Below, piece after piece: positions 3,055-60,520 of a DNA stretch of 64,000 nucleotides. Location: the NCBI RefSeq assembly GCF_006345805.1, contig NC_043003.1, positions 111,972,001-112,036,000 on the forward strand. The letters are read 5' to 3'. Position 1 is the stretch's first letter, and each line of letters begins with the position of its first letter. Position numbers and translations under genes: made by a program. The DNA is from Octopus sinensis (lineage: Eukaryota). The notes beneath the pieces are model-generated. The model was not told the origin of the DNA, ran no database searches, and saw only the letters and a list, made by a program, of their open reading frames with translations.

Positions 3055-3946
3055 AAACTTAGATAAACTTAGATATGTTTCGACCAAGATTGGTCCAGGC
3101 CATGTCTAACTTAATAGTGACACCTGATAGGATTATTCGAATCCTGTTTAAGTCAAGTTTTGTTTATGGTCCATTCAAGTAGTGAGTTTTTGTTGGGTGA
3201 GTTGTATCCAATTATGGGTGGCTTATCTGGTATTCTTTGAAGGAATATATCCAGACTCCGATTAAAGTTGATGGAATCCTTTTCCTCTTTGAACTCATTC
3301 GAGACAATGTTAAATAGGGCAGGGCCTGTTGAGGAAAAGAAATTATGTTGCAGTGTACATGTATGCTGTGATCTTGAATTGGGCAGGGTACGTATGTTCC
3401 GTCGTCCCAGTCCTAGATGAACCTTGAAGCTAATCTTCAGGTCGTTTGGGCAAAGTTGGCGGTATATTCTCCACATCGTACAAATGACGTACCGCTCACG
3501 GCGACGCTGGAGAGAGTAAAGTTTCAAGGCTTTAAGGCGATCTCAATAATCGAGAGCAGCCATGCCTTCACTTCGTTTAGTGAGTGCCCTCTGGGGTGAC
3601 TCAATCCTGGATATGCTTTGTCTTGTATGGGGATACCACAGTGGGCAGCAATATTCAAGGTGTGGCCGTACAAAAGAGAACAGTGGCATGATGACACCTT
3701 GTTCTCTGGACCGGAAAGTTCTTAAGATCCAGGAACTCATCCTACGAGCAATATCGACCTTCTTGTTTATGTGTGCACTCCAACTGAGATCGTCATCAAC
3801 AATTATACCCAGATCCCTGATATTGTTAGAAGCTGTGAGCGGTTCCCCTGAAGGAAGAGAGTATGGCTGTTTTAGTGAGGAATTTCTTCCAAAATGCATC
3901 AACTCAAATTTTCCCTCGTTCAGTTGCATTTTGTTTCTGTCTGCCC
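3055..3946 (-). mobile_element. 5'-truncated CR1/L2-group LINE (RT C-terminus + 3' UTR)
   Basis: ORF 3543-3929 has CR1-type motifs (RDLGIIVDDDLSWSAHI, VRPHLEYCCPLWYP, IESPQRALTK) and continues after a frameshift as LYSLQRRRERY. The 3' end has a short tandem (atctaagttt)x2; both flanks are (TA)n. Confidence 0.9.
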
Positions 3947-4036
<90 letters not shown>

Positions 4037-13610: not shown

Positions 13611-14375
13611 CGAGGATCTCCGAACAACTTCATGATATTAACCACCGAAAGGCGTTAGCACGCCGGGCGAAATGCTGAGCGGCATTTCGTCTGCCGTTCA
13701 AATTCCACCGAGGTTGACTTTGCCTTTCATCCTTTCGGGGTCGATAAATTAAGGACCACTTACGCACTGAGGTCGATGTAACCGACTTAATCCGTTTGTC
13801 TGTCCTTGTTTGTCTCCTCTATGTTTAGCCCCTTGTCGGTAATAAAAAAACAGATATTGGCCACCTGCTAAGAGGTTGGTACCCATCTCAACCGCACAAC
13901 AAGGGGGAATAGGAGGCCAGAAATTCTTTGGCAACGTTGTCTAACTCTTTCTCGAGGTATGGCGAGGAGATGAATCCTGCTGCTATACAAGTTTTCCAGT
14001 AACAACCCTTTCCGGTCAAAAATTGAACACAATCTCCAGCTTCACATAACATGAACCTAAGGCCCTGTTCAATGACTTGGTGATGGATTTTCGGCGTGTT
14101 GACGCTGCCAGAATGTCTCCGTGTCCTTTTTGCTAGCAACGGCTTCGTTTTATCAGCTACAAGTAGTTTGTGGCTGGGTGATAGCAGATTGCTCAAAGCT
14201 GCTGCCCTCAAGTTTCCTCTACGGTTATTCAATCCACGTTTTACACTCTTTACGGTATCCACGGGACATTGATCAGCATTCATGATGTCACCATTTTGAT
14301 ACCTGACATGAATTATCATGATACAGGTAATGCTTTTCCAATATTCCCGCAGCTTTCAGTTCTCCATGTCAGTCG
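13610..14375 (-). mobile_element. Decayed Tc1/mariner (maT-like) transposon remnant interrupted by a SINE
   Basis: Minus strand ~13990-13905 reads V*QQDSSPRHTSRKS*TTLPKNFWPP, matching the WQQDSAP.HT...WPP motif of the 4.7-5.5 kb element. Boundaries are approximate. Confidence 0.65.
13650..13858 (+). mobile_element. SINE group D (Nin/Deu-like central domain)
   Basis: gttagcacgccgggcgaaatgc...gaggttgactttgcctttcatcctttcggggtcgataaattaag; homologous to 44614-44838 and 48890-49117. Confidence 0.85.
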
Positions 14376-19930: not shown

Positions 19931-20340
19931 AAGTGTAGGCCGATGTGGTTAAAAACTTTTCTTCCGTACCACATGGTTCTGGGTTCAGTCGCTATAAGTG
20001 TTCCCTTCGGTAAGTATTTTCTACTATAGCCCTGGGCCGAATAAATTCTTGTAGGTGCACTCGGTAGATGAGAAATTAATGAATCCCATGGTATAGAATT
20101 GTATTCATACGTGTGTGTTATGTGTTTGTGTTTTCCACCCTCCACCGCTTGGCAACAGGTATAAGTGTGTTTACATACCCGTAACATAACGGTGCGTCAA
20201 AAGACAACAATAAAATAAGTACCTTAGCGTAAAAGAATAAATAATGGGGTCGATTCGGTCGACTAAATTTCTTCAAGGTGGTGTCCCCGCATGACCGCGG
20301 TCAATTGACTAAAACAAGTAACAGACAAAAGATAAAAGTA
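19931..20340 (+). mobile_element. SINE group A, diverged copy
   Basis: ccacatggttctgggttcagtc (B box region), cttctactatagccctgggccga and tail ctaaaacaagtaacagacaaaag; homologous to 54821-55257. Confidence 0.8.
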
Positions 20341-20821
20341 ATTACTAACATCGCTGACTCAGAGTCTCCACCTCTTTCTTCCCCATCTGTCTCTTTCTCT
20401 CTCTCCTTCTCTCTCTCTCTCTCTTTATGACTTCTCTTGTACTTGTTACTATTACCGTTGATACGATAGGTGTATCTACTGAGTTATGTTTTACTTCTGT
20501 TTAGCTTTAAAGTATCCCTATCATTTGATTTCTGGACTATCGCCAGAAATCAGTTTTTCTCTGTAAAAATAAAGGTAAATCTTAAACTGTATCAAAGATA
20601 AAATGTTCATGAATTAACATCACCACGATACGATGGCGATTTAAATCTGTTAAATTCTTCAAATATTGATGCAGTGATAAATGTAACAAACACTCTCACT
20701 TATACACACACACACACACAAACATACAAATGCACACATATATATACACGTGCTATAACTTTATTATTAGGTTAGAATGCAAGACACAATCTACCAACAT
20801 AACATGCATACATATGCATAC

Positions 20822-25530: not shown

Positions 25531-25581
<51 letters not shown>

Positions 25582-25587
25582 ATATAC

Positions 25588-25979
25588 TCATTTACTCATT
25601 TACTTGTTTCAATCAATGTGACTGTGGCCATGCTGGAGCACCGCATTTAGTCGAGGAAATCGACCCCAGGACTTATTCGTTGTAAGCCCAGTACTTAATC
25701 TATCGGCTTCTTGGGCCGAACCGCTAAGTTACGGGGACGGAAACACACCAGCATCGGTTGTCAAGTGATGGTGGGGTGAACAACACAACACATAATCATG
25801 CACATATATATATACATATATACGACGGGCTTCTTCCAGTTTCCGACTACTAAATCCACTCACAAGGCTTTGGCCGACTCGAGGCTATAGTGGAAGACAC
25901 TTGCCCATAGTGCCACGCAGTGGGACTGGAACGGAACCATGTGATTCGTAAGCAAGCTACTTACCACACAGCCACTCCT
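25588..25979 (-). mobile_element. SINE group A (tRNA head, internal microsatellite)
   Basis: Reverse complement starts aggagtggctgtgtggtaag (A box) ... gttccagtccc; body matches 32401-32816 and 54821-55257. Confidence 0.9.
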
Positions 25980-25980
25980 A

Positions 25981-26062
<82 letters not shown>

Positions 26063-26071
26063 TTTTTTATT
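25980..26071. repeat. (TTA)n tract, start of the RLE-element cluster
   Basis: Direct reading; further (TTA)n/(TAA)n tracts at 26618-26778, 27277-27290, 29011-29133, 30217-30277 and 30617-30722. Confidence 0.95.
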
Positions 26072-26617
26072 GAGTGAGAGAGCATTGCATGCCATCAAAG
26101 TGACACTGAGGTAAACTATACGAAGCCCGGTATACCCATCATGACTAGCCATCTGATAAGGGTACACAAGGCACATGCATCACAACCATATGTGCGCGAC
26201 ATGGTGATCTCATATCAAGATGAACAGCACATGGCCTTGCAGGTGGGGCCCAGTTAGAATTTTCTTCAGGTTGAGTAGCCCATTCCGCTCAAAAGGCCCC
26301 TGAATAAGGGTTGTTTAAGGATGTTGAAAAAAACACCTATGTTTCCATAGGTGAATTTATTCAAATTCCAAAGGATCCCTCTCAACACATGGCTATCATG
26401 CTCCCCCACTACTTCTGCTCGTGCTCAGAGATGCACATATCGTCAGCCACTAAGGGACATGCTCAACTGGTTAAGGTCAAGCAAATCTGTGGTATTGAGC
26501 AGAATATTTGCTGTAGCCCATCTTTTATACCAAGACAAAACAATGTACATGATAACACATCCAATCAGTTAAGATCAAAAGCCATGAGAGCCACTGCCTG
26601 GTACTGCATCAGGGCAT
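26072..26617 (-). mobile_element. Non-autonomous (TAA)n-associated element X, copy 1
   Basis: Flanked by (TTA)n on both sides; highly similar to 26779-27276; no intact ORF; vestigial RLE-like translation on the minus strand. Confidence 0.8.
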
Positions 26618-26653: not shown

Positions 26654-26757
<104 letters not shown>

Positions 26758-26778
26758 TATTATTATATTATTATTATT

Positions 26779-27276
26779 GAGTGAGAGAGCAGTGCATGCC
26801 ATCAAAGTGACACTGGGGTAAACTATACGAAGCCCAATATACCCATCATGACTACCCGTCTGATAAGGGTACACAAGGCACATGCATCACAACCATATGT
26901 GCGCGACATGGTGATCTCAAATCAAGATAAACAGCACATGACTTTGCAGGTGGGGCCCAGTTAGAATTTTCTTCAGGTAGAGTAGCCCATCCCGCTCAAA
27001 AGGTCCCTGAATAAGGGTTGTTTAAGGATGTTAAAAGAACCACCCATGTTTCCAGAGGTGAATTATTCAAACCCCAAAGAATCCCTCTCAACTCATGGCT
27101 ATCATGCTCCCCCACTACTTCTGCTCGTGATCAGAGATGCACATATCGTCAGCCACTAAGGGACATGCTCAACTGGTTAAGGTCAAACAACTGACAAGCA
27201 AATCTGTGGTATTGAGCAGAATATTTGCTGTAGCCCATCTTTTATACCAAGACAAAACAATGTACATGATAACACT
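26779..27276 (-). mobile_element. Non-autonomous (TAA)n-associated element X, copy 2 (5'-truncated)
   Basis: Same 3' end (ctctctcactc + aat repeats on the minus strand) as copy 1; lacks ~60 bp at the 5' end. Confidence 0.8.
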
Positions 27277-27290
27277 TTATTATTATTATT

Positions 27291-29009
27291 TTTTTTTTTC
27301 TTCTTTCAAATTTTCTTCCATTTCTTGCCGAGTGTCTTCCCGACTCCTAGGGCAAAGAAACTCATAGTGTATATTGGTAGGCCATTAAACCAAACTCAGT
27401 AGTTCGTTAATTTTTTTTTTTTTTTTTAAATTAAATTAAAATACATGAGCAGCAGCAGTTCTCACATCGACAATGCTCTTCTCAATACGTGTGATGTACC
27501 AGTTAAGACAATCTTTTGCACTTCTTGCAGGGATGGTAAGCCAGGGATCATTCTCATATAATTTTCGGTTCCCTTCTTGATCAGTCCTAGTGCTCCTACG
27601 ATCACTGGTATTGTAACCGCCTTGAGATGCCACATTTTCTCAATTTCAATGAGAATATTTTCTGAGCTTGTCAAACTCTTTCGCTGAGATATTATGATCA
27701 CAGGGGATGCTCATGTCGATCAATAAGCAAACTTTATTGTTTTGGTCTTTCACAACAATATCTGGTTTATTGGCCTTGATGGTTCGGTCTGTATGTACTG
27801 GAAAGTCCCACAGAATGGTTACATTTTCTCCTTCAGTTATAGCCTCAGGGTGGTGATTATACCACTTGTCGGCAGTTTTGATATTGTAATGCCGACTTAT
27901 TAGCCAGTGGAGATATTGGCCAACTCTGTCATGTCTTAATTTATACTCCACTGGTGCTAAGACTTTACATCCAGAGATTAGGTGGTCCACTGTTTCAATC
28001 ATGTCGTTGCAGAATCGGCATTTTGGGTCTGCTCCATTTTTCATCACATTGGCCTGGTAGTTCCGGGTTGAGAGGCTTTGGTCTTGAGCAGCCAGGATGA
28101 AACCTTCGCTCTCTGCTTTTAGCCCTGAGCTCCGCAGCCACTGATGGGTTTGCTTCTGGTCAACATCAGCTTGTTTGCTGCGGGTCACATATTTGCCGTG
28201 CAGAGGTTTCTCCTCCCACCTATCAGCCAATTGCTCGTGCGCTTTTTCATTGCCATCATTTTCACCTTCTTTGCAACAATAGTTGCCGTACTTTCCTCGG
28301 GTTGTTCAGTTTGGGTATCCTGCACGAGATCAATAGCAAATTTTTTGCTTTCCTTGATGATAGAATGAAGCTTCTTTCGTCTCTCGTGATTTTCCACGAG
28401 CTTTAGCATCCAGTCATTCGATATTTCGAGATATTTGGCCAGTCCAATTGTGGTTGTTTTGTAAGCTAGTTCAAATTGGATCAGGCCTCGACCTCCTTGG
28501 GGGTCTGGGAAGGTAAAGGCAATCTACGTCTGCCTTTGGGTGGTGCATCCTATTACAACTCAGCAGCTTGCGTATTTTTCTATCTATATTCTTTACTTCA
28601 CTCATATTCCAGTTCAACACATTGTAGCTATAAGTAACAACTGGAACTGCTAGGGAATTTATAGCTGACACATTGTTACGTGCATTTAGTTCAGATTTCA
28701 GGACTGCACGAACTCTCCTATAACATTCCTTCCTGATTTTCTCTTTCAAGCTTGCATGCTGAATACCAGAGCCTTCATTTATCCCTAAATATTTGTATGT
28801 TTGTTCTTGCTCAAGCTCTCTTATGACTGTGTCAACATCTAACACGACTGAATTTGTGGTCTTCACTTTCCCTTTCTGGAAAGTGGCCTTGGCACACTTC
28901 TCAAGTCCAAACTCCATCCTGATGTCATCGCTGAATGCTTTCAAGGTGCGCAATAGGCCTTTAAGTTCATTATTGTCTTTACCATAAAGTTTTAAGTCAT
29001 CCATATAAA

Positions 29010-29011
<2 letters not shown>
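27291..29011 (-). mobile_element. R4/Dong-like RLE LINE family 1, copy A (5'-truncated at YMDD)
   Basis: ORFs 28471-29004, 27646-28230 and 27462-27701 give YMDDLKLY, YKYLG, CRFC..ETVDHLISGC (CCHC), RHD, KPDIVV..IDMSIP and VQKIVLTGTSHVLRRALSM; flanked by (TTA)n. Confidence 0.95.
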
Positions 29012-29133: not shown

Positions 29134-30213
29134 ATACCACCTAACAATTAAGAAGAAGAAGGAGGAGGGGGGAAGAAGAAGAAGAAGAAGAAGAAGAAGA
29201 AGAAGAAGAAGAAGAAGAAGAAGAAGAAGAAGAAGAAGAAGAAGAAGAAGAAGAAGAAGAAGAAGAAGAAGAAGAAGAAGAAGAAACAAAAGCTATAAAA
29301 CAAATGAAATCCAAAATAAAACTAGAACGACAACGGACCATGTTAAAACGATGGCCAGAAAATATCATTCATGCCAAATACTGGACTAAACTAAATGCAA
29401 AAGAAATAGACAAAGAAAAATTCCAGCAATGGTTGAGAAGCTCAGGACTCAGAGCAGAGACAGAGGGATTTTTAATTGCAGCACAAGACCAAAACCTCCC
29501 CACCTGAAATTACCAAAAACATACAATGAAAAGAAACATAACCAGTAACTGCAGAATATGTGGAGATGGAGAAGAAACAATAAATCATATTATCTCTAGC
29601 TGCCCAGTCCTGGCTAAGAAGGAATATATTCACAGGCACGACAGAGTAGGGACCTACATACACTGAAAGCTATGCCAACACTATGGAATAACAACAGAAA
29701 AATGATGGTATAGGCACACACCAGAAAAGGTCACAGAAAACGAGAAAGCAACCATACTCTGGGATATGCCAATACACAGAGATAGAGAAATTAAGGCCAA
29801 ACAGGCTAGATATAGTTGTCAGAGATCATGAGGGGAAAAATACATTCTAATAGATATATCGATACCAGCAGATGACAACGTGTCTCTAAAAGAAATAGAG
29901 AAACTTTCAAAATACAAAGACCTGGAAATAGAGGTAACTCGAATGTGGAATTTAAAAACAGAAACAATCCCTATCATGCTAGGCGCATTAGGTATGAAAA
30001 AAATTATTAAACAAATATATAACAAAAACACCAGGATTTAGAAACACATATAACATACAGAAAAAAATTGCACTATGGGCACTGCACACATCCTACACAA
30101 AACCCTTTCAATACAGTAACCATCAGAGCATCACAACAAATTACAGCACATACCCAAGGCACACAGAGCTGCGCTCGGTAGTGAATTGAAACCACGCTAT
30201 AACAATAAAACTA

Positions 30214-30216
<3 letters not shown>
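29134..30216 (+). mobile_element. R4/Dong-like RLE LINE family 2, 5'-truncated copy
   Basis: WLRSSGLRAETEGFLIAAQDQ, CRICGDGEETINHIISSC, RHDRVG and KLSKYKDLEIEV, with stops and frameshifts; ends ctactg + (AAT)n. Confidence 0.92.
29150..29285. repeat. (GAA)n microsatellite
   Basis: Direct reading; its 3' end is in frame with the LINE ORF (EEE-TKAIKQMK). Confidence 0.97.
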
Positions 30217-30277
<61 letters not shown>

Positions 30278-30279
<2 letters not shown>

Positions 30280-30616
30280 CGTGTCTCTAAAAGAAATGGA
30301 GAAACTCTCAAAATACAAAGACCTGGAAATAGAGGTAACTAGAATGTGGAATCTGAAAACAGAAACGATTCCTATCATAGTAGGTGCATTAGGCATGATA
30401 AAAAAATGTTCAGACAAATACATAACAAAAACACCAGGACTTACAAACACATATAACATACAGAAAATTGCACTACTAGGCACTGCACACATCCTACGCA
30501 GAACACTTTCCATACAATAACCATCAGAGCATCACAACAAATCACGGCACATACCCAAGGCACACAGAGCTGCGCTCGGTAGTGAAGTGAAAGCACGCAA
30601 AAAAATAAAACTACTG
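30278..30616 (+). mobile_element. R4/Dong-like RLE LINE family 2, short 3' fragment
   Basis: ORF 30281-30520 SLKEMEKLSKYKDLEIEV..IQKIALLGTAHILRRTLSIQ plus the same 3' UTR as 29134-30216; between (AAT)n tracts. Confidence 0.92.
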
Positions 30617-30635
30617 AATAATAATAATAATAATG

Positions 30636-30666
<31 letters not shown>

Positions 30667-30680
30667 TAATAATAATAATA

Positions 30681-31352: not shown

Positions 31353-33900
31353 ATGTAAGAAATGAAATTGCTGTACGTGGGCACAATATAAAAAGCAGGT
31401 TCTCTGATCTTGGGGGCGCGAAAGACCTAACAGGTATTTAACCATAATTGGACATGATTCAAATAGTTCAGTTCTTAAATTTGGACATGTGACGGGGTCT
31501 AAACTGCTTTTCCAGATGAGCCACCCTTCCATATCACAAAGACCGCACTTTTAACTGTCATTCGTGTAAGTGTTACACTTGGCTAAGATCTTGCAACGGA
31601 TGTTATAATTGACACCTTTTTTTTCTTTTAAGGACCATATATAACTGGATAATCTTGTTGTTTTTCTTTTTACCCAGTGTCTGAAGCTCAAGGTGTGATT
31701 GTTGAACCTGGCTTTGAAATTCCCCGCTGTGAGACCCACATATTTCTGTGACGAAACTATGTCCTTGGTGGTCGTAGAGTCTACGGTGGCTTCATAAATG
31801 ATGGTCTCAGACATGGAAGCTCCATTTAGCGGGCATACTTTTTATCCCTGCACGAGCAGAACAGCTGGTTTCATTTTGTTGTTTTCGTGTGTTTCAATTA
31901 TATTTTTAAAATTAGTAGTTAAGCTAAAACTATTTTTTTAGATTGTGCCTATTGAAGAGCTTTCTATAATTATGATTGACTGGAAAATGCCTATCTATAA
32001 CTGATAAAAAATATTTACCTATGTTAAAGGTCAATTCTGGGGAGTAAGGGGAATGTGAACCAGATAGTTCCTATGTTTCCTTTTCTTTATTACTGGACTA
32101 ATGACAGGTGTATAGGTTATTTCCTCGCTAAATCCCCTATCCTTTAGAGCTTTATTATATACTGGCCAACACTATTAAAATGTTTCTATCGGAGGAGAGG
32201 CTAGAAATTATTTTGCTAATATTTAAACTAAATTCTTAGACATTATGGGGGGATGGTAGGAACCTACATGAATATAACCAAGTCTATCGTTGGGCTTCCT
32301 GTAAGGTTTGTAGATATTCTTATTTATATTTACGGATACATCTAGGAAATTGACAAACGTCAGATTGGTATCTGTTGTAATGCTAAGACCCATGTTTTCA
32401 TCATTTACTCTTTACTCTTTTACTCTTTTACTTGTTTCAGTCATTTGACTGCGGCCATGCTAGAGCACCGCCTTTAGTCGAGCAAATCCACCCCGGGACT
32501 TATACTTTGGAAGCCTAGTACTTATTCTATCGGTCTCTTTTGCCGAACCGCTAAGTGACGGGGACGGAAACACACCAGCATCAGTTGTCAAGCAATGCTA
32601 GAGGGACAAACACAGGCACACAAACATAGACACATGCATATATACATATATACGACAGGATTCTTTCAGTTTCCATCTGCCAAATCCACTCACAAGGCAT
32701 TGGTCGCCTCGGAGCTATAGCAGAAGACACTTGCCCAAGATGCCACGCAGTGGGACTGAACCTGGAACCATGTGGTTGGTTAGCAAGCTACTTACCACAC
32801 AGCCACTCCTACGCCTGGATAATTTTCTTTCTTAAACTGATCTTGTGCTGTTCCATTGGTATTTGTGGTTACATCTAGAGCATCATCTTTGTAAATGGCG
32901 AAATGTACACCAGGAAAAGTCTTACCCAACGTATCAAATAGGAATAGTCCAATGAAATCGCATATGCCTGCTCCATCATATGACCCCATGGTCGCATCGA
33001 AATCACCCTCTGTATCGGTAGTCTTGACCCTCTCTGCGTTCTCACTGAAGAGTAAAGTCTTTTTAGCATGGAAGATTGTGTCCTTATCTTGTGTACTAAT
33101 TTCTATAAATTTTCTTGCGAAGGTGAGGGCTTTATCTAGCAGTCCTGAGAGATAGAGGTATAGAAATCTACAATATCGATTTGTGTAAATCTTTATTCTT
33201 ATTCTTAATGGCTTTAAACCAGTCAACGACTTCTATACTATTCGACCATTGTACTAGCCTAGTAGCATTTCAGACTTTCGCATCGATTTTTCCTAAACTT
33301 TTACTAACAATACCAAATTCTGATTTAGGTGGGTTAATAAGCCTACGTTTTGGATTAGATAGGAAGTACTTTTCATGGTCTTTAATAGTTATAAAGGCCT
33401 ATTTTTTTTTTAGAAGGACTACAATTTTTTAATCTGATTTAAGCCTAGCAGTGATGATGATCGTTTCTTTATAAATTACTTTATAAATTTGTGGCCTAGC
33501 TTTAGTGTAATTATTAATAATGTTATTATGTAGGAGTTGTGACTATGTTCTGTTGCCTACGAGCTCTAAGTTCTTGGTTTCATCAGAAAAAATGATGCCG
33601 TTTTGGGGAAACTCTCTATGTATTTGATATCTTTATCCGTTTCTGTTAGAAAGTGTTAAAAGTCTTACTCGAAATCTTTCAAGCCGTTGATTTTTGGATT
33701 GCGATCTTTGTGATATGGAAAGACGGCTCATCTAGAAATGCAGCTTAGACCTCGCTACATGTCTAAATTCAAGAATTGAACTTTTTGAATCATGTCCATA
33801 TATGGCTAAATATTTGTTACGTTTTTGGTCCCCTTCCCCAATATCACAGCTAGAAACTACTTTTTATATTATCTACATACAAGCATTTCATTTCTTACAT
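31353..33900 (-). mobile_element. Penelope-like element (Naiad/Neptune-type RT + GIY-YIG), decayed, with inverted 3'-end copy
   Basis: RT FDATMGSYDGAGICDFIG..IYKDDAL (32792-33226); VNFLDV; GIY-YIG IIYEA..KYVGLT..FKARFNNH preceded by CSC..CPLNG and followed by CGLC..TELFESCP. 33700-33900 is an inverted copy of 31353-31547. Confidence 0.88.
32401..32816 (-). mobile_element. SINE group A inserted in the Penelope-like RT
   Basis: Full head-to-tail match with 54821-55257; interrupts the PLE reading frame. Confidence 0.92.
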
Positions 33901-39484: not shown

Positions 39485-39515
<31 letters not shown>

Positions 39516-39523
39516 GTATGTAT

Positions 39524-39765
39524 ATCTTTCTTTTACTCTCTTTTTACTTGTTTCAGTCATTTTTACTGCGGCCATGCTGGAGCACCGCCTTTAATTGAGC
39601 AACTCGACCCGGGACTTATTCTTTGTAAGCCCAGTATTTATCCTATCGGTCGCTTTTGCCGAACCGCTAAGTGACGGGGGACATAAACACACCAGCATCG
39701 GTTGTCAAGCAATGCTAGTGGACAGACACACAAACATACACGCATACACACACAGAGACATACAC

Positions 39766-39770
<5 letters not shown>
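39524..39770 (-). mobile_element. SINE group A, 3' half only
   Basis: tacttgtttcagtcat..gcggccatgctggagcaccgcc..gccgaaccgctaagtgacgggg; stops at the internal microsatellite. Confidence 0.88.
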
Positions 39771-39805
<35 letters not shown>

Positions 39806-42178: not shown

Positions 42179-42233
<55 letters not shown>

Positions 42234-42244
42234 CATATATATAT

Positions 42245-42297
<53 letters not shown>

Positions 42298-42298
42298 C

Positions 42299-42330
<32 letters not shown>

Positions 42331-42348
42331 ATATAATATATATATATA

Positions 42349-42381
<33 letters not shown>

Positions 42382-42400
42382 ATATATATATATATATATA

Positions 42401-42990
42401 ACAATTTAGGAGTGACCCTTAACAGGCCATTCGTCCACAAGAAAGAGCAGCCATAACTCACACCGCCAAGTAGTAGTAATTCAGAAATTAGGTGAAAATT
42501 TAAAAACATTTACCCTAATTCAACTTTTAGACGATGCATCGTTTCTGTGTATTAATGATTAAATTAGCTTAATTAAATTAAATTAAGCTAATCTACCATA
42601 GGTCACACTTCATCAGTAAAAACCTGGGAGAGACAAATATACACGAGGCGTCTGTATCGATGCCTCCGGAATATCTGTCTTAAAATTTTCAAGACCGACG
42701 TATTCGCGCCAAACTTATCAGCAGTAAATATAAACTGCCGATTCAATCTCAGAATTATTCAGAAAATTATCAATTAGTCAATTTAGGGTAGCAAGAAATT
42801 CAATAGAAATTTATCGCTACCAGCGGCCTAGTGGAAAAGAGAAAATAGTCAAAGACTAAATATATAAATATAACAATTTAGGAGTGACCCTTAACAGGCC
42901 ATTCGTCCACCAGAAAGAGCAGCCATAACTCACACCGCCAAGTAGTAGTAATTCAGAAATTAGGTGAAAATTTAAAAACATTTACCCTAA
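42401..42990 (-). mobile_element. Retrozyme-like partial-tandem non-coding element (472-bp unit, 118-bp direct repeats)
   Basis: 42401-42518 equals 42873-42990 except for one substitution seen; flanked by (TA)n; internal hammerhead; no ORF. Confidence 0.75.
42523..42623 (-). ncRNA. Type I hammerhead ribozyme with extended stem II
   Basis: GTTTTTA CTGATGA A GTGTG..AGATTAGCTTAATT-taattt-AATTAAGCTAATTT..TACAC A GAAA CGATGCATCG TC TAAAAGT; intact core and GUC triplet. Confidence 0.8.
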
Positions 42991-44613
42991 AATATATATA
43001 TATATATATATAATTATACATATAATTGTAGATATAAAGAGTGAGAGGAAAGCTGTAGAAACCGACTGATACATAGATAAATGAATAGATGTTAGATAGG
43101 GAAAACGTTCCTTCGTTTTATGACGATACTCTGCCCAACACAACGTATCGATGTAGAAGATCATGCAACACAAATGTTTCGACATATTCCGTCTCATTAC
43201 CCAGAAATACTTACCATGACATTGAGACTAGCGAAGAAGTTGGTTTTTACTGATAATTTTAGCGAATAAAAAGTTTGCTGGACATTGCTTATATCTGCCG
43301 ATATATATATTAAATTTATATTTGCGTCTCGTACAGCGAGGTCTTGAACGAATATTTAACATATTTATACTTAAACTGTCTTCGTAGGTTCAGAGTGAAG
43401 TATGGCAATCGTTTTAGCGCGCGGCGACGGAGAATAAGCCCTTCCTTTCATGATAAAGTGTAAAATACTCAAGTTGTTGCAGAGGATTCTGGGACACCGG
43501 TGTCACCCCTGCTATAAGTTCTTCGGACTTTTGAGTCTCGCTAAGGAGCTGGCCTTTGTTTTTGTTTTTTCACTTTTAGGGAACATTATATTTGCAGATC
43601 GGTGCTATTAAATCCAGCAATTGATTTTAAATCATATTTTTATATACTGTCTACTCCTTATCTTCATCAACGAGAAAAGATTTTGTCTTTGGACTAGTAT
43701 ATTTTGCCTCTTTATCTCCCTAATCATATGAAATGTGTAAGTTTTCGTTCCATATCTCTCTCTACAGGGTTTAAATAACGGTTTCTATCGATTAGCAGAT
43801 ATAAGAAACGATCAGCAAGCATGTTGGTCGCTGAAAAAATAAACAAAGCACAGCTTCTTGGCTAGACTCCAAGATCTGAGGAGCATCTGGCTGATGAGGC
43901 ACCCATGACGGAAAACAAGTGTTCCAGAATTCTCTGCGGCATGTGCGGAGAAAAATCTCTCTCTTTCATGTCAATATTTTGTTGAATACCATATTCTCAT
44001 GAGAGAGGTTTTTCTCTTTTGATATTCATTACACCGACAAGCTTACTTTGCGACTTAGCATATCTAGATAGATTAATAGACTTAGTTCAGGCTGGCGAGA
44101 GATGTATTTTGCTAGACTCCAAATACTAAGACACGCTATGTGCAACTTGAACAACATCAGGTAAAAGATGGCGTGAAAATATAAAGAGAGCGGTAACTGA
44201 TATCATGGGTGGAAAATAGAGTGTCCGAGTGATGTATTGAGTATATTTGTTTAGTACGGAACAAAGGGTATATGACACAACATAGTGACGAAAGGGCAGC
44301 TGATCTGAATTAGGGGTGTAAACGCAACCAGGTCCGGGATTCCGTGGCCAATGTAGATACTATATAAAGTGCAGATACAATAAATCCTACATCAATATGG
44401 CAAAAATATAGTGCAAAGCTATAGTTCAGTACCGCAAATAGAAAATGAGCCTGTATATGGCTGTGCAGCCTGCTAGATATATTCGCTAAGTTCCATTAAA
44501 CACACCCTCATGTCTTAGTACAAATGATATAATACATTGTAGAGTATGATTCAATGAGTGTCATGTTCTGCTCATAAACCAACTGAAATCTTATCATCGA
44601 AACGGATATATAT

Positions 44614-44838
44614 ATTTCTTTACTACCCACACGGGGCTAAACACAGAGGGGACAAACAAGGACAGACAAACGGATTAAGTCGATTACATCGATCCCAGTG
44701 CTTAACTGGTACTTAATTTATCGACCCCGAAAGGATGAAAGGCAAAGTCGACCTCGGCGGAATTTGAACTCAGAACGTAGCGGCAGACGAAATACGGCTA
44801 CGCATTTCGCCCGGCGTGCTAACGTCTCTGCCAACTCG
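44614..44838 (-). mobile_element. SINE group D with target-site duplication
   Basis: Homologous to 48890-49117; cggatatatat occurs at 44603-44613 and 44837-44847. Confidence 0.9.
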
Positions 44839-48619: not shown

Positions 48620-49195
48620 TTTAGGTAGATAGGTAGTTAGTTACGTAGGTAGGTAAGCAGGTAGGTAGGTAGGAAGGTAGGTAGGTAGGTACGTAGGTAA
48701 GCAGGTAGGTAGGTAGGTAGGTAGGTAGGTAGGTAGTAGGTAGGTAAGTAGGTAGGTAGGAAGGTAGGTAGGTAGGTAGGAAGATAGGTAGGTAGGTATG
48801 CAGGTAGGTAGGTTGGTAGGTGGGTAGGTAGGTAGATAGGTAGGTAGGTAGGTAGGTAGGTAGGTAGGTAGGTAGGTAGGTAGGTAGGCAGGCGGTAAGC
48901 TGGAAGGAACGTTAGCAAGCCGGGCAAAATGCTTAGCAGTATTTCGTCTGCCGCTAGGTTCTGAGTTCAAATTCCACTGAGGTCGACTTTCATCCTTTCG
49001 GGGTAGATTAAATAAGTACCAGTTACGCACTGGGGTCGATATAATCGTCTTAATCCGTTTGTCTGTCCTTGTTTGTCCTCTCTGTGTTTAGCCCCTTGTG
49101 GGTAGTGAAGAAATAGGTAGGTAAGTAGGTTGGTTGATTGTTTGTATGGTTGGTTGGTAGTTAAGTAGGTAGGTAAGTAGGTAGGTAGGTAGGTT
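48620..49195. repeat. Imperfect (TAGG)n tract, interrupted by a SINE
   Basis: Direct reading. Confidence 0.95.
48890..49117 (+). mobile_element. SINE group D
   Basis: aggcggtaagctggaaggaacgttagc..gagttcaaattcc (B box)..tttcatcctttcggggt; homologous to the other D copies. Confidence 0.9.
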
Positions 49196-50112: not shown

Positions 50113-50490
50113 AGGCGCAGTCGTGGCTCCGTGGTAAAATGCTTGCTTCTCAACCACATTGTACCAGGTTGTGTCCCTCTGCGTGGCACCATTGGCAACT
50201 GTCTTCTGCCATATTTCGGCCCGACCATAGCCCTTTGGTAGACAGAAACTGAAAGACGCCCATACATGTATATATTTGTTTGTGTGTGTCTGTCATTTTT
50301 GCCTCCCACACCATCGCTTTGCAATCGATGTTAGTGCGTTTACGTCCCAGTAACTTAGCGTTTCGGCACAAGAGGCTGATTCAATAATTACTTGTCTTAC
50401 AAAGGAGTCCTGGGTTTGATTTGTTCGAGTAAAGGCGTGGGTCAGCATGGCCACAGTCAAGTGACAGAAACAATAAAAGAATAAAATAAT
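50113..50490 (+). mobile_element. SINE group A, diverged copy
   Basis: aggcgcagtcgtggctccgtggtaa..ggtagacagaaactgaaaga..taacttagcgtttcggca..cagcatggccacagtcaa. Confidence 0.85.
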
Positions 50491-50547
50491 AAAGCAATAT
50501 ATATCTTTATGTACGTATGTATGCATATATGTGTGTGTGCATGTATA

Positions 50548-54820: not shown

Positions 54821-55048
54821 ACTCTTTTACTCTTTTACTCTTGTACTTGTTTCAGTCATTTGACTGCGGCCATGCTGGAGCACCGCCTTTGATCGAGCAA
54901 CTCGACCCCGGGACTTATTCTTTTGTAAGCCCAGTACTTATTCTATCGGTCTGTTTTGCCGAACCGCTAAGTAACGGGGACATAAACACACCAGCATCGG
55001 TTGTCAACCAATGCTTGGAGGACAAACACAGACACACAAACACACACA

Positions 55049-55099
<51 letters not shown>

Positions 55100-55257
55100 G
55101 ACGGGCTTCTTTCAGTTTCCGTCTACCAAATCCACTCACAAGGCATTGGTCGGCCCGGGGTTATAGCAGAAGACACTTGCCCAAGATGCCACGCAGTGGG
55201 ACTGAACCCGGAACCATGTGGTTGGTAAGCAAGTTACTTACCACACAGCCACTCCTG
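54821..55257 (-). mobile_element. SINE group A, well-preserved copy
   Basis: Reverse complement gcaggagtggctgtgtggtaag..ccgggttcagtccc; internal (TA)/(TG) tract; (AAGAGTAA) tail. Confidence 0.92.
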
Positions 55258-56161
55258 CTAAAGATTTTTTTCTTATCCTCGTATTGCTGTTTTAAATATT
55301 CAAACTGAGTTTTAAAAACAATGTTATTTACAGTCATTGAGAATACCAATGTATTTCATGTTGAAACGATCAAGATACTAAACAGTCATGCATTAGCAAA
55401 ATGTATAGACAGACTTTGTTTTTTTCTTTATATATTTACTCAACGTTACTTAAAAATGGAACGTACAAAGGGAAATTACATTTACATTTTGTAAAATAGA
55501 ATCGCATTTCTTTCGAAAATCTACAGTGTACTCGAGCTGTTAAAACATATCTGTCACTGCTTTTGTATATATATATCTTGCGTTGACTAGAGATGGCCAT
55601 TCTGTCAATAAAAATTTAAATACATGCATGCACTAGTTCAATACCACTTATTTCTTTTACCAACTAACTATTGAATGCATTGACTAATGTGTTGATTGAA
55701 CAATCAATCGACGTTTCTTTGTCGGATTTCTTTTGTCGCTGTTCGTGAACTAATGAATGACATACCCTTATTCTTCATGGTCTGCTTTGAGTTCGTCTGA
55801 GAACTAGCATTATACCCATGTGCCAGTTTGCATAATTGCTCTTCTTAAAGACAACAAAATATACGTGACCTCACGCGGTGTGTGTGTGCATGCAGATTTT
55901 TTAAAGTGGTGTACACATTTTATATGTTAAAAAAACAAGAAGTAGTAAAATTTGGGAAAATTATCTATTGAACTCTTTCATGACGTTTCGGAGGTTGATA
56001 AGAAATGATAATTATAAAGGCATACATTTTATGAAAAAAATATCATTCCTGATGTGCACGGTAACACCCAACTTTTATTTATTTATTTATTTATTTTTTT
56101 ATTTATTTATTTATTATTATTGTTGTTGTTATTATTATTATTATCATCATTATTATTATTA

Positions 56162-56204
<43 letters not shown>

Positions 56205-58998
56205 TTTTTTTTTTCTTCTTTCAAATTTTCTTCCATTTCTTGCCGAGTGTCTTCCCGACTCCTAGGGCAAAGAAACTCATAGTGTATATTGGTAGGCCAT
56301 TAAACCAAACTCAGTAGTTCGTTCATTTTTTTTTTTTTTTAAGTTAAATTAAAATGCATGAGCAGCAACAGTTCTCACATCGACAATGCTCTTCTCAATA
56401 CGTGTGATGTACCAGTTAAGACAATCTTTTGCACTTCTTGCAGGGATGGTAAGCCAGGGATCATTCTCATATAATTTTCGGTTCCCTTCTTGATCATTCC
56501 TAGTGCTCCTACGATCACTGGTATTGTAACCGCCTTGAGATGCCACATTTTCTCAATTTCAATGAGTAGGTCTTTATATTTTCTGAGCTTGTCAAACTCT
56601 TTCGCTGAGATATTATGATCACAGGGGATGCTCATGTCGATCAATAAGCACACTTTATTGTTTTGGTCTTTCACAACAATATCTGGTTTATTGGCCTTGA
56701 TGGTTCGGTCTGTATGTACTGGAAAGTCCCACAGAATGGTTACATTTTCTCCTTCAGTTACAGCCTCAGGGTGGTGATTATACCACTTGTCGGCAGTTTT
56801 GATATTGTAATGCCGACTTATTAGCCAGTGGAGATATTGGCCAACTCTGTCATGTCTTAATTTATACTCCACTGGTGCTAAGACTTTACATCCAGAGATT
56901 AGGTGGTCCACTGTTTCAATCATGTCGTTGCAGAATCGGCATTTTGGGTCTGCTCCATTTTTCATCACATTGGCCTGGTAGTTCCGGGTTGATAGGCTTT
57001 GGTCTTGAGCAGCCAGGATGAAACCTTCGCTCTCTGCTTTTAGCCCTGAGCTCCGCAGCCACTGATGGGTTTGCTTCTGGTCAACATGAGCTTGTTTGCT
57101 GCGGGTCACATATTTGCCGTGCAGAGGTTTCTCTCCCACCTATCAGCCAATTGCTCGTGCGCTTTTTTCATTGCCATCATTTTCACCTTCTTTGCAACAA
57201 TAGTTGCCGTACTTCCCTCGGGTTGTTCAGTTTGGGTATCCTGCACGAGATCAATAGCAAATTTTTTGCTTTCCTTGATGATAGAATGAAGCTTCTTTCG
57301 TCTCTCGTGATTTTCCACGAGTTTTAGCATCCAGTCATTCGATATTTCGAGATATTTGGCCAGTCCAATTGTGGTTGTTTTGTAAGCTAGTTCAAATTGG
57401 ATCAGGCCTCGACCTCCTTGGGCTCTTGGAAGGTAAAGGCGATCTACGTCTGCCTTTGGGTGGTGCATCCTATTACAGCTCAGCAGCTTGCGTATTTTTC
57501 TATCTATATTCTTTACTTCACTCATATTCCAGTTCAACACATTGTATCTATAAGTAACAACTGGAACTGCTAGGGAATTTATAGCTAACACCTTGTTACG
57601 TGCATTTAGTTCAGATTTCAGGACTGCACGAACTCTCCTATAACATTCCTTCCTGACTTTCTCTTTCATGCTTGCATGCTGAATACCAGAGCCTTCATTT
57701 ATCCCTAAATATTTGTATGTTTGTTCTTGCTCAACCTCTCTTATGACTGTGTCAACATCTAACACGACTGAATTTGTGGTCTTCACTTCCCTTTCTGGAA
57801 AGTGGCCTTGGCACACTTCTCAAGTCCAAACTCCATCCCGATGTCATCGCTGAATGATTTCACGGTGCGCAATAGGCCTTCAAGTTCATTATTGTCTTTA
57901 CCATAAAGTTTTAAGTCATCCATATAAAATAGATGGTTTATTTTTTTATTGGCAATTTTATACCCATACCTTGTTCTGTTTAATTCACTTGTAAGGGGTA
58001 TTAGGGCTATGCAGAATATTAATGGTGAAAGTGAGTCACCTTGAAAAATTCCACAGTTGATGTTTATATTTTCTGAGGCAAGTACTCCATTAGAGTGGTA
58101 TAATTGGAGATTCGTATTCCACAACGACATATTGTGCTTCAGGAAGTTTGAAATCACAGGGGAAATTTTGAAGATGTCCAGCGATCTCAAGATCCATGGA
58201 TGCGGTATACTGTCGAAGGCCTTTTATAGTCAATCCATGCGGTGCTGAGATTTCTGCGCTTGTTGTGACAGTTCTCAAGGATCATACGATTGACTAGCAG
58301 TTGATCTTTGCATCCGTAAGAGCCTCGGCGGCACCCTTTTTGTTCAATGGGGAAAATATCGTTCTTCTCCATGAATGCATATGTTTTCTCCGCCAGGATA
58401 GATGTTAGGATTTTATACGTGGTGGATAGACAGGTTATAGGCCGATAGTTTTTTGGAAGGTTGGTTTCGTTATTCTTTGGGAGTAGGTAAGTAATGCCAC
58501 TTGCTAACCATTCACGTGTTTTCTTTGGGTCTCTCATAATTCCATTGAGCAGCTGATCTAGCTTACCGTGTGCGCATGGGAGCGATGCGAGCCAGAAATT
58601 CGGCACCCTATCTTTACCGGGGGATTTCCAATTATGGGCCTTCGTGAGTGCGTTTCTTAGGTCTGCTATTGTGATGTCTTCCCATGCTTGTTGTTGTAAA
58701 TTTTGGTAGGATCCTTCAGTTTGTATAATCCAGTCTGCATTTATGTTGTACGTCTTCTTGTCACTCCAAATCCTTTTCCAAAAGTTTTGAACTTCTTCCA
58801 TGGGAGGGGTGTCTTTAACGGTTACTTTCTCCTTCCCTATTTCTCTGTAGAATTTTTTGGCATTGGATGTAAACAGCTTATTTTGCTTGTAAAACTTGTT
58901 TCTCTTCTCAAATCTTCGTATTCTTTGGGCTTTTGCTTGGACTTTTTGTTTCAGCGTTTCTTTTATTGATATCAGTTCTTCTCTTGGTGAGGATCCAA

Positions 58999-59000
<2 letters not shown>
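56205..59000 (-). mobile_element. R4/Dong-like RLE LINE family 1, copy B (2.8 kb, RT + RLE)
   Basis: WKSPGKD, NYRPITCL, EQKGC, AWIDY, GIFQGDSLSPLIF, HLFYMDDLKLY, YKYLG, CCHC knuckle, RHD, PD..D and K..KY; (TTA)n on both sides; near-identical to 27291-29011. Confidence 0.96.
56375..58999 (-). pseudogene. RT-RLE polyprotein ORF broken by three single-base frameshifts
   Basis: Consecutive ORFs 58187-58801, 57783-58190, 57106-57816 and 56375-57139 join at short homopolymer/low-complexity sites. Confidence 0.85.
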
Positions 59001-59064
<64 letters not shown>

Positions 59065-59089
59065 CATTATTATTATTATTATTATTATT

Positions 59090-60060
59090 CTATGTTTGAC
59101 TTCTGCTATATGTTTGTACAAGTTGGCTCCAAGTCTCACCCAGAGCCCTCAAGAGACAACAGGTTGGGAGTTCACGTTGTTGTTATGCCTAGTGTGCCAT
59201 ATATTTGGGTTTGTTTTTGGGTTTTGAACTAGATAATGTCTAATAATTTTTTTTTTTTAATTTTGTTTTAAACCTTGGGATTACATAGAGAGTATTTTGC
59301 GTAGGATATGAGCAGTTCCCATGAGCACTATCTTTTGAATTTCTGCCATTTTGGGGTTTACTGGTATCTGAGTTAGGTAGCAATCAGCCCCTTTCGCTAT
59401 CATTCCCAGGGCACCTATGATAACAGGTATTGTTTTAGTCTTCAGGTTCCACATTTTGCTGATTTCTATTTCAAAATCTTTATATTTGCTCAGTTTTTGG
59501 TAGGTTTTGACAGATACGTTTATATCGATTGGGACAGTCATATCAATGAGGAGGCATGTTCTTTGTCCGAAGTCTTTCAATATGATGTCTGGTCTATTTG
59601 CATCTATCTTTCTGTCAGTTTGAATGGTGAAATTCCAGAGGAGTGAGATGTGGTCATTTTCAAGCACTGGGGGTAGATTGTGTTCCCACCAGTTTTTTTT
59701 ATGGGGCAAATCCATGTTTTTGCAAATTACCCAGTGAATATATTGTGCAGCTCTATCATGCCTGTTGAGGTACTCTGCGGGCGCTAGAAGACTGCATTTG
59801 GAGACAACATAATCAATGGTTTCATTTCGTTGTCGACATACACGACATGTTGGGCTACTGCCGTTCTTTAATACGTTGGCCTGGTAATTTCTTGTTGGTA
59901 GGCATTGATCTTGAGCTGCTATGATAAACCCCTCTGTTTCAGATTTTAAGCTAGAGGCCATTAGCCATTGATGGGTCAGGGCTTTGTCAATATCTGCATT
60001 ATTCGCTCTCTTTGGGTATTTGCCATTGAGCGGTTTTTCTTGCCATTTATTATTCAGAAT
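59090..60060 (-). mobile_element. R4/Dong-like RLE LINE family 3, 5'-truncated
   Basis: ORF 59281-59961 ETEGFIIAAQDQ, CRVC..ETIDYVVSKC, RHD, RPDIIL..IDMTVP and IQKIVLMGTAHILRKILSM; distinct 3' UTR; (TTA)n on both sides. Confidence 0.94.
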
Positions 60061-60127
60061 ATTATTATTATTATTATTTTTATTATTGTTATTATTATTT
60101 TTATTATTATTGTTATTATTATTTTTA

Positions 60128-60209
<82 letters not shown>

Positions 60210-60249
60210 CACACACATATCCACACACATAGGAAAGCATATGCATGTT

Positions 60250-60520
60250 TTAGACACTCTTCACAGAAACAGAATTACGGTGGTACCATACGAAAAGAAG
60301 AGCAAAGTATATACGAACATTTCTATAAAAAAAAGGAACAACAAACGAATGTCTTCACTAGAGGGCCTGAATATATCCCGAGTTACTTATACCATAATCA
60401 GAAAATCTGCACAAGTTTATCGGATAAAGTCATCCATGAAAAAATACTTGAAATATTAAAGGGTGTCCTCCTAGACAATGATTATCCACTGTCCCTAATC
60501 GATAAATTCAATATCTAGGA
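60250..60520 (+). mobile_element. Penelope-like RT thumb remnant
   Basis: From ~60402 reads KICTSLSDKVIHEKILEILKGVLLDNDYPLSLID, resembling the PLE IC..(E)L..L...L..N.YP...I motif. Confidence 0.55.

Follow-up and report, generated by a model that had tools for sequence, protein, structure and literature searches.

The window analysed here is a 64-kb stretch of the Octopus sinensis genome, and at 42401-42990 it holds a 590-nt element, read on the minus strand, that is a 1.25-unit copy of a 472-nt unit. As the initial annotation had it, direct repeats of 118 nt each (42401-42518 and 42873-42990) lie 472 nt apart and differ by one mismatch (42439, A vs C). On the minus strand, the 5' copy of this pseudo-LTR-like repeat (42873-42990) starts 11 nt past the position equivalent to the predicted ribozyme cut. 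It is followed by the noncoding unique part of the unit, 354 nt long (42519-42872) and predicted to be highly structured on that strand, and then by the 3' copy (42401-42518), whose end adjoins a degenerate (TA)n microsatellite at 42190-42400, the 3' flank of the element and its presumed target. The 5' flank is a short (TA)n run at 42991-43013. An earlier description of the element as embedded in (TA)n holds in that TA lies on both sides, but the flanks are unequal (a degenerate stretch of about 210 nt to the left, one of about 21 nt to the right), and a target-site duplication cannot be discerned in them. The insertion may be recent, the sole basis for this dating being the single mismatch between the repeats. 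A blastn search of the element against the window returned no second copy.

The element had been described as free of open reading frames, and this was borne out: over all frames, also with units placed head to tail, the longest stop-free stretch is 61 codons and the longest from a methionine is 41. The reverse transcriptase and GIY-YIG endonuclease ORF of an autonomous Penelope-like element is absent from the unit. Furthermore, the element has no Pol III A box (B-box-like words occur on both strands, with one mismatch each), no AAUAAA on the minus strand and no poly(A) or LINE-like tail, and no tRNA gene was called in the 64-kb window. A bacterial promoter scan of the element gave chance-level results and is irrelevant here. 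No LTR/PBS/PPT layout is apparent; what is found is a short, multicopy, noncoding unit with one type I hammerhead per unit, as in non-LTR retrozymes.

The rest of the window is rich in other repeats. LINE copies with reverse transcriptase and zinc-binding domains lie at 27277-29011, 56192-59089 and 59281-60129 (minus strand), beside (AAT)n runs. Two of them are 97.6% alike over 1,744 nt, and the LINE protein has 289 relatives, the best about 72% over the full query; we take these LINEs to be R4/Dong-like. The frame at 3543-4031 (minus strand) is presumably similar to the C-terminal portion of a reverse transcriptase from a CR1-type LINE. A SINE-like repeat of about 400 nt, which we assume to be a common Octopus repeat, is present in six copies 65 to 87% alike (19944-20341, 25544-25980, 32407-32810, 39485-39805, 50113-50530 and 54821-55258), and a second dispersed repeat of about 220 nt in three copies at 80 to 88% (13650-13857, 44608-44836 and 48898-49119). 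Local tandem duplications measure about 580 nt (25981-26558 and 26690-27275) and about 400 nt (29877-30678). A broken frame at 60207-60515 (plus strand), flanked by simple repeats, has by eye a putative likeness to the thumb of a Penelope-like reverse transcriptase. It has no relatives in Pfam, two protein searches or the atlas, and it is not taken as a Penelope-like partner of the element.

The minus strand of the element carries a type I hammerhead at 42522-42624, with the CUGANGA/GAAA/UH core, three helices and an open end at stem I. Stem I pairs 42624-42617 with 42529-42522; the core CUGAUGA (42616-42610) is followed by a 64-nt stem II region (42609-42546), then by GAAA (42545-42542) and a palindromic 12-nt stem III (42542-42531), and GUC precedes the predicted cut at 42530/42529. 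The core, the long stem II, the palindromic stem III and the cut site are as initially annotated. Stem I, given there as 7 bp, is present but counts eight pairs, of which the outer three are G.U wobbles, and the claim that the 5' boundary of the element (42990) falls almost exactly at the equivalent cut was slightly generous, since it lies 11 nt downstream, just beyond the 3' strand of stem I. The A.A at positions 10.1/11.1, flagged from the start as a caveat, forms the first pair of stem II in the window copy, which has neither the canonical G10.1-C11.1 nor any other Watson-Crick pair at the stem base. A hammerhead-topology scan gave a single match in the 64-kb window, against 1 in 2,000 dinucleotide shuffles of the 590 nt and none in 30 shuffles of the window. 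Among 26 Rfam matches at E values up to 5, none was to a hammerhead family, and only low-complexity microRNA-type and chance matches appeared; the long stem II may account for this.

Predicted energies bear on whether this copy would cut. The active fold of the window copy is predicted at -21.6 kcal/mol against -27.5 kcal/mol for the best monomer fold, a gap of 5.9, and a double hammerhead at -59.9, which is below two monomers (-55.0) and above the inactive dimer (-68.7). By default, then, the predicted structure of the window copy is an inactive one. At the scale of the whole unit, a minus-strand circle is predicted at -124.9 kcal/mol, compared with -94.4 for shuffles (standard deviation, 5.6; n = 40; z = -5.5). 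The plus-strand circle, at -92.6 kcal/mol, is no better than shuffles, so the predicted structure is strand specific.

Public contigs place this copy within a family. Twenty listed runs from 8 studies, with 3 organism labels, contain part of the stretch, and 4 of 24 listed runs (X1, X6, X10 and X19, from at most 4 studies and with two organism labels) were compared over 42489-42990. All are contigs; the kind of run is unknown for X1 and, by the guess of the tool, DNA for X6 and RNA for X10 and X19. Strand, ends and circularity cannot be read from contigs, the figures for variants are contig counts without phasing, and summed depth is no copy number. The rows described here belong to a record that holds a further 60 substitutions, 22 indels, 84 loose ends and 1,705 pieces. 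The pieces that match 42489-42990 number 1,533 in X1, 108 in X6, 69 in X10 and 18 in X19, and they cover 30 of 30 bins in each run, including the 32-million-letter X6. By identity, the X1 pieces divide into 420 at 99% or more, 511 at 95 to 99%, 486 at 90 to 95% and 116 under 90%. So many variant pieces imply many copies, and the possibility that the unit is single copy, which the initial annotation had named as fatal to its reading, did not materialize. Pattern scans of viral contigs, metagenome contigs and prokaryote genomes found no copies. Coverage depth dips at 42540-42556 and 42846-42896, near the predicted ends, in records that are filtered, so that a hole there proves nothing.

Variants in the family preserve the hammerhead helices, as judged from unphased contig counts. 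At position 42523, 329,339 of 329,580 depth in X1 differs from the window, and this change together with listed changes in the 5' strand makes the family stem I Watson-Crick where the window copy has wobbles. A double change in stem III that preserves the palindrome occurs in single loose ends in X6 and X19, and position 17 varies from C to A only. None of the 40 substitution rows listed falls in the hammerhead core, and among these rows nothing bears out the earlier concern that the core might not be kept across copies. The A.A at the base of stem II is the majority state where that position is covered, and hence no private mutation of the window copy; an A-U pair there has 219 of 8,288 depth in X1, 15.3 of 33.9 in X6, 6.1 of 11.5 in X19 and 0 of 132 in X10. 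Over the unit as a whole, predicted pairs are not spared by the 40 listed substitutions beyond what chance would give (15 broken vs a null of 17.0; P = 0.29). The ribozyme looks selected, to judge from its helix-preserving variants, and its activity is putative.

These observations also bear on the idea that DNA-level processes spread a satellite-like tandem array of which the locus is a stray fragment, its hammerhead being a relic that has lost cleavage. Head-to-tail joints in the contigs (see below) suit arrays as well as circles, the active fold is predicted to be disfavoured in the window copy, and most tested vertebrate dimers failed to cleave (bioRxiv 10.64898/2026.07.22.740005). However, random array fragments would not be expected to give a lone 1.25-mer that ends at the best TA-like site of 472 on one side and near the cut on the other, and selection on RNA is suggested by the helix-preserving variants and by structure confined to the minus strand. 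We consider a satellite origin quite unlikely.

In the contigs, the unit closes on itself. At least one of 32 listed pieces spans each position of 42519-42959 with a minimum of 31 letters on both sides; with pieces from X1 and X6 by themselves, eight gaps are left, the TA site among them. Joints that lead back by one unit were found in X19 (one contig, depth 6.1) and X10 (depth 20.2), and they fit 1.25-mers, arrays or circles alike; the window copy has one complete hammerhead. The share of pieces that continue into unlike sequence is 0 in X1, 0.02 in X6, 0.19 in X10 and 0.36 in X19, and no cluster of loose ends at one internal point appears among the 24 rows listed.

This continuity bears on a second alternative, namely, that the locus derives from a long and abundant coding element of the Penelope-like kind, as a gutted copy of it or a by-product of its ends, with the repeat as its pseudo-LTR, the unique part composed of 5' and 3' untranslated ends joined across a deletion, and the 472-mer itself not propagating. 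Coding Penelope-like elements have the same layout of a repeat, an intron-like segment over the repeat boundary and a hammerhead some 130 nt from the 3' end. One X19 contig (depth 2.1) leaves the unit at 42697, inside the unique part, for 144 letters, and the X1 pieces listed, at 94 nt or less, are too short for long continuations. Against this, no position of the unit lacks a bridging contig, the listed loose ends do not gather at an internal point, head-to-tail joints lie one unit apart in two runs and no ORF remnant is present. Closure of the unit on itself, with no single deletion junction, argues against a one-off gutted copy, and the earlier caveat that the unit might always be the terminus of a long coding Penelope-like element is disfavoured, although a coding parent has still to be allowed for because the contigs are short and further rows lie beyond those listed. 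Overall, we judge this origin unlikely.

The intron-like segment just mentioned, a doubtful 106 nt at 42828-42933 on the minus strand (GUGAGU donor, pyrimidine tract, YAG), spans the repeat/unique boundary. The 5' UTR intron of Chlamys-3 has a like placement, and that of Penelope is close to it. The donor G is altered in 103,530 of 510,089 depth in X1 (20%) and in 576 of 763 in X10 (75%), the acceptor sits within a predicted helix, and no exon-joining contig joint over 42828-42933 is listed. With a variable donor and no skipping joint in the contigs, the intron reading lost support, and that the segment is a retained intron seems to us rather doubtful.

Metazoan non-LTR retrozymes are known from coral, mussel and axolotl (PMC7229834; bioRxiv 10.64898/2026.07.22.740005), so the class as such is already published; the preprint treats retrozymes as nonautonomous derivatives of Penelope-like elements and proposes their origin from pseudo-LTRs. 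The octopus element resembles them in its noncoding unit of a few hundred nucleotides, its one type I hammerhead per unit, a GC content under 50%, a strongly self-paired predicted circle, head-to-tail continuity and many variants per genome. By its unit, motif and copy number, it would work like a metazoan non-LTR retrozyme. Its mismatch at the stem II base has a precedent in the axolotl retrozyme hammerhead HHR_Amex2, which has U.U there, still cleaves and does so better as a dimer; cleavage was seen in only one of nine tested dimers in the preprint.

There are also differences. At 472 nt, the unit is longer than the tested retrozyme circles (170 to 400 nt) but within the 51- to 972-bp range of the preprint, in whose terms a dispersed 1.25-mer with one ribozyme is a "monomer" and not "active." The 64-nt stem II and the 12-nt palindromic stem III contrast with the short helices of the canonical retrozyme motif. 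The internal TA-like tract at the 3' end belongs to the octopus element and is not described for retrozymes in the portions of PMC7229834 and bioRxiv 10.64898/2026.07.22.740005 drawn on here. Expression of retrozymes yields linear and circular monomer RNAs, whereas the octopus element is known here from contigs and sequence alone. No paper on an octopus or cephalopod hammerhead or retrozyme family was found by title or abstract start, and the family may well be catalogued in repeat databases or supplements. The element would add a cephalopod to the animals with retrozyme-type RNAs.

The second set of likenesses is to Penelope-like elements. Those of the Hydra clade insert into (TA)n and carry hammerheads near the 3' end (PMC8557442), and Penelope-like hammerheads are marked by an additional base after A9 (PMC4209133). 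An origin of partial tandems from circular templates was put forward in 2014 (PMC4209133). The element is like the Hydra clade and Neptune in its (TA)n context and its partial-tandem pseudo-LTR layout (PMC8557442 and PMC4209133), in a hammerhead that several of these families place about 100 to 150 nt from the 3' end, and in an unpaired first stem II position or an extra nucleotide after A9. By our count in File S2 of PMC8557442, the first stem II position is unpaired in 15 of 25 Hydra-clade families (14 U.U and one U.C) and is A.A in none of the 25. The element differs from these groups in that its A.A is not among the mismatches listed, and also in lacking an ORF. Noncoding Chlamys elements such as MRC1 offer a further parallel, with pseudo-LTRs, head-to-tail insertions and the need for a Penelope-like partner; unlike the octopus element, they are algal, mostly lack canonical hammerheads and have a partner known by 3' similarity (PMC8557442).

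Candidate partners exist in Octopus. Penelope-like elements are reported to make up 6.83% of the Octopus vulgaris genome, with 31 recently active families and 190 families in the repeat library, and (TA)n-preferring Naiad and Hydra families are recorded for Octopus. The Hydra clade includes one Octopus family, Hydra-1_Obim (PMC8557442), whose hammerhead sequence, by eye, differs from that of the element. When three short motifs of the element were compared with the portion of the PMC8557442 consensus files covered, two were absent and the third matched once. As a separate observation, a 12-letter word just after the cut site (42975-42986, minus strand) recurs near the 3' end of the Naiad_Ovul consensus (PMC8557442, File S5), where it is preceded at a short distance by a 9-letter word that resembles the beginning of the hammerhead core; the likeness was seen by eye and may be AT-rich chance.

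The ends of the element bear on how it was copied. Directly after the end point of the genomic copy, the unit has an internal TA-like tract (42857-42872, minus strand), which matches the TA flank at 14 of 16 positions and ranks first among the 472 positions of the unit. A 3' end at such an internal tract is what is new in this copy. Its position at the most TA-like 16-mer of the unit suggests priming by annealing to a (TA)n target, with the tract as the putative anchor. The copy also crosses an intact ribozyme junction, which implies a template that was circular, multimeric or uncleaved or else a template jump, and these are indistinguishable from sequence; a cleaved linear monomer primed at the tract would yield the repeat only, not a 1.25-mer. 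Only one genomic copy with flanks was seen, and family-wide fixed ends and TA targeting cannot be read from one copy.

A mechanism can be proposed that starts from what is directly observed (the unit, the motif, helix-preserving family variants, head-to-tail continuity and the 3' end at the internal TA-like tract). Minus-strand transcripts of more than one unit would be cut at the hammerhead, probably by two ribozymes paired via the 12-nt palindrome, and the product would be ligated into a 472-nt circle or would still be partly multimeric. Nicked genomic (TA)n may then anneal to the internal UA tract of the RNA and prime cDNA there. The enzyme would copy 129 nt to the ribozyme junction, read through it and circle once, and on the second round synthesis would end 11 nt before reaching the cut site, leaving repeat, unique part and repeat with one complete ribozyme.

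We attach a probability of about 0.7 to the reading that the family is a nonautonomous non-LTR retrozyme-type retroelement inserted in (TA)n by a Penelope-like reverse transcriptase/endonuclease. The original reading, a copy of a self-cleaved or circular RNA made possibly by a Penelope-like reverse transcriptase, is in this sense partly supported: two of the four findings that were to speak against it, a single-copy unit and an unconserved core, were examined, and neither refuted it.

The same kind of nonautonomous hammerhead element could instead be mobilized by a LINE, for example, a microsatellite-targeting R4/Dong-like or RTE element. LINE copies share the window with the element, some beside simple repeats, the recently active LINEs of O. 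vulgaris are most often of the Dong-R4 type, and LINE involvement is left open in PMC7229834. However, the element has no tail of the poly(A) or LINE type, its blastn comparison with the window gave no match to the LINEs there, and the traits that mark Penelope-like elements include partial-tandem ends, (TA)n targets and a type I hammerhead. Mobilization by a LINE is, in our estimate, very unlikely, and a Penelope-like enzyme is the preferred agent.

A fuller version of the Penelope-like scheme is put forward tentatively, at well below even odds. In it, an octopus retrozyme family would move via a 472-nt circular RNA whose UA tract serves as a telomerase-like anchor for (TA)n, so that a fixed start and a near-junction end would produce stereotyped 1.25-mers; a dimer-dependent hammerhead with a long stem II and A.A would gate cleavage, and the structured RNA would be A-to-I edited by the host. 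Priming, microsatellite preference and the circular templates of pseudo-LTRs are still unsettled for Penelope-like enzymes in PMC4209133 and PMC7229834. With the clean geometry of this copy (3' end at a TA-like tract, read-through of the junction and termination 11 nt before the cut), such questions can be put to the test on an RNA of 472 nt. If a circle with an internal TA anchor is indeed the template, it would be a minimal natural substrate for Penelope-like microsatellite choice and pseudo-LTR formation.

Some minor observations concern the RNA itself. In X19, 20 of 55 places are T>C when read on the plus strand and A>G in the hammerhead strand. The corresponding counts are 4 of 41 for X1 (Fisher P = 0.004) and 7 of 45 for X6 (P = 0.024; eight tests, uncorrected), and X10 has no excess (11 of 69). 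The X19 excess hints at A-to-I editing of minus-strand RNA or at a divergent subfamily. A predicted hairpin at 42787-42821 (minus strand) is a speculative recognition element; it overlaps the bins of greatest depth in three runs and a deep bin in the remaining one, summed depth being a poor measure. Finally, a near-perfect AT-rich palindrome at 42560-42595 forms the tip of the long stem II and is a possible second intermolecular pairing site or DNA cruciform.
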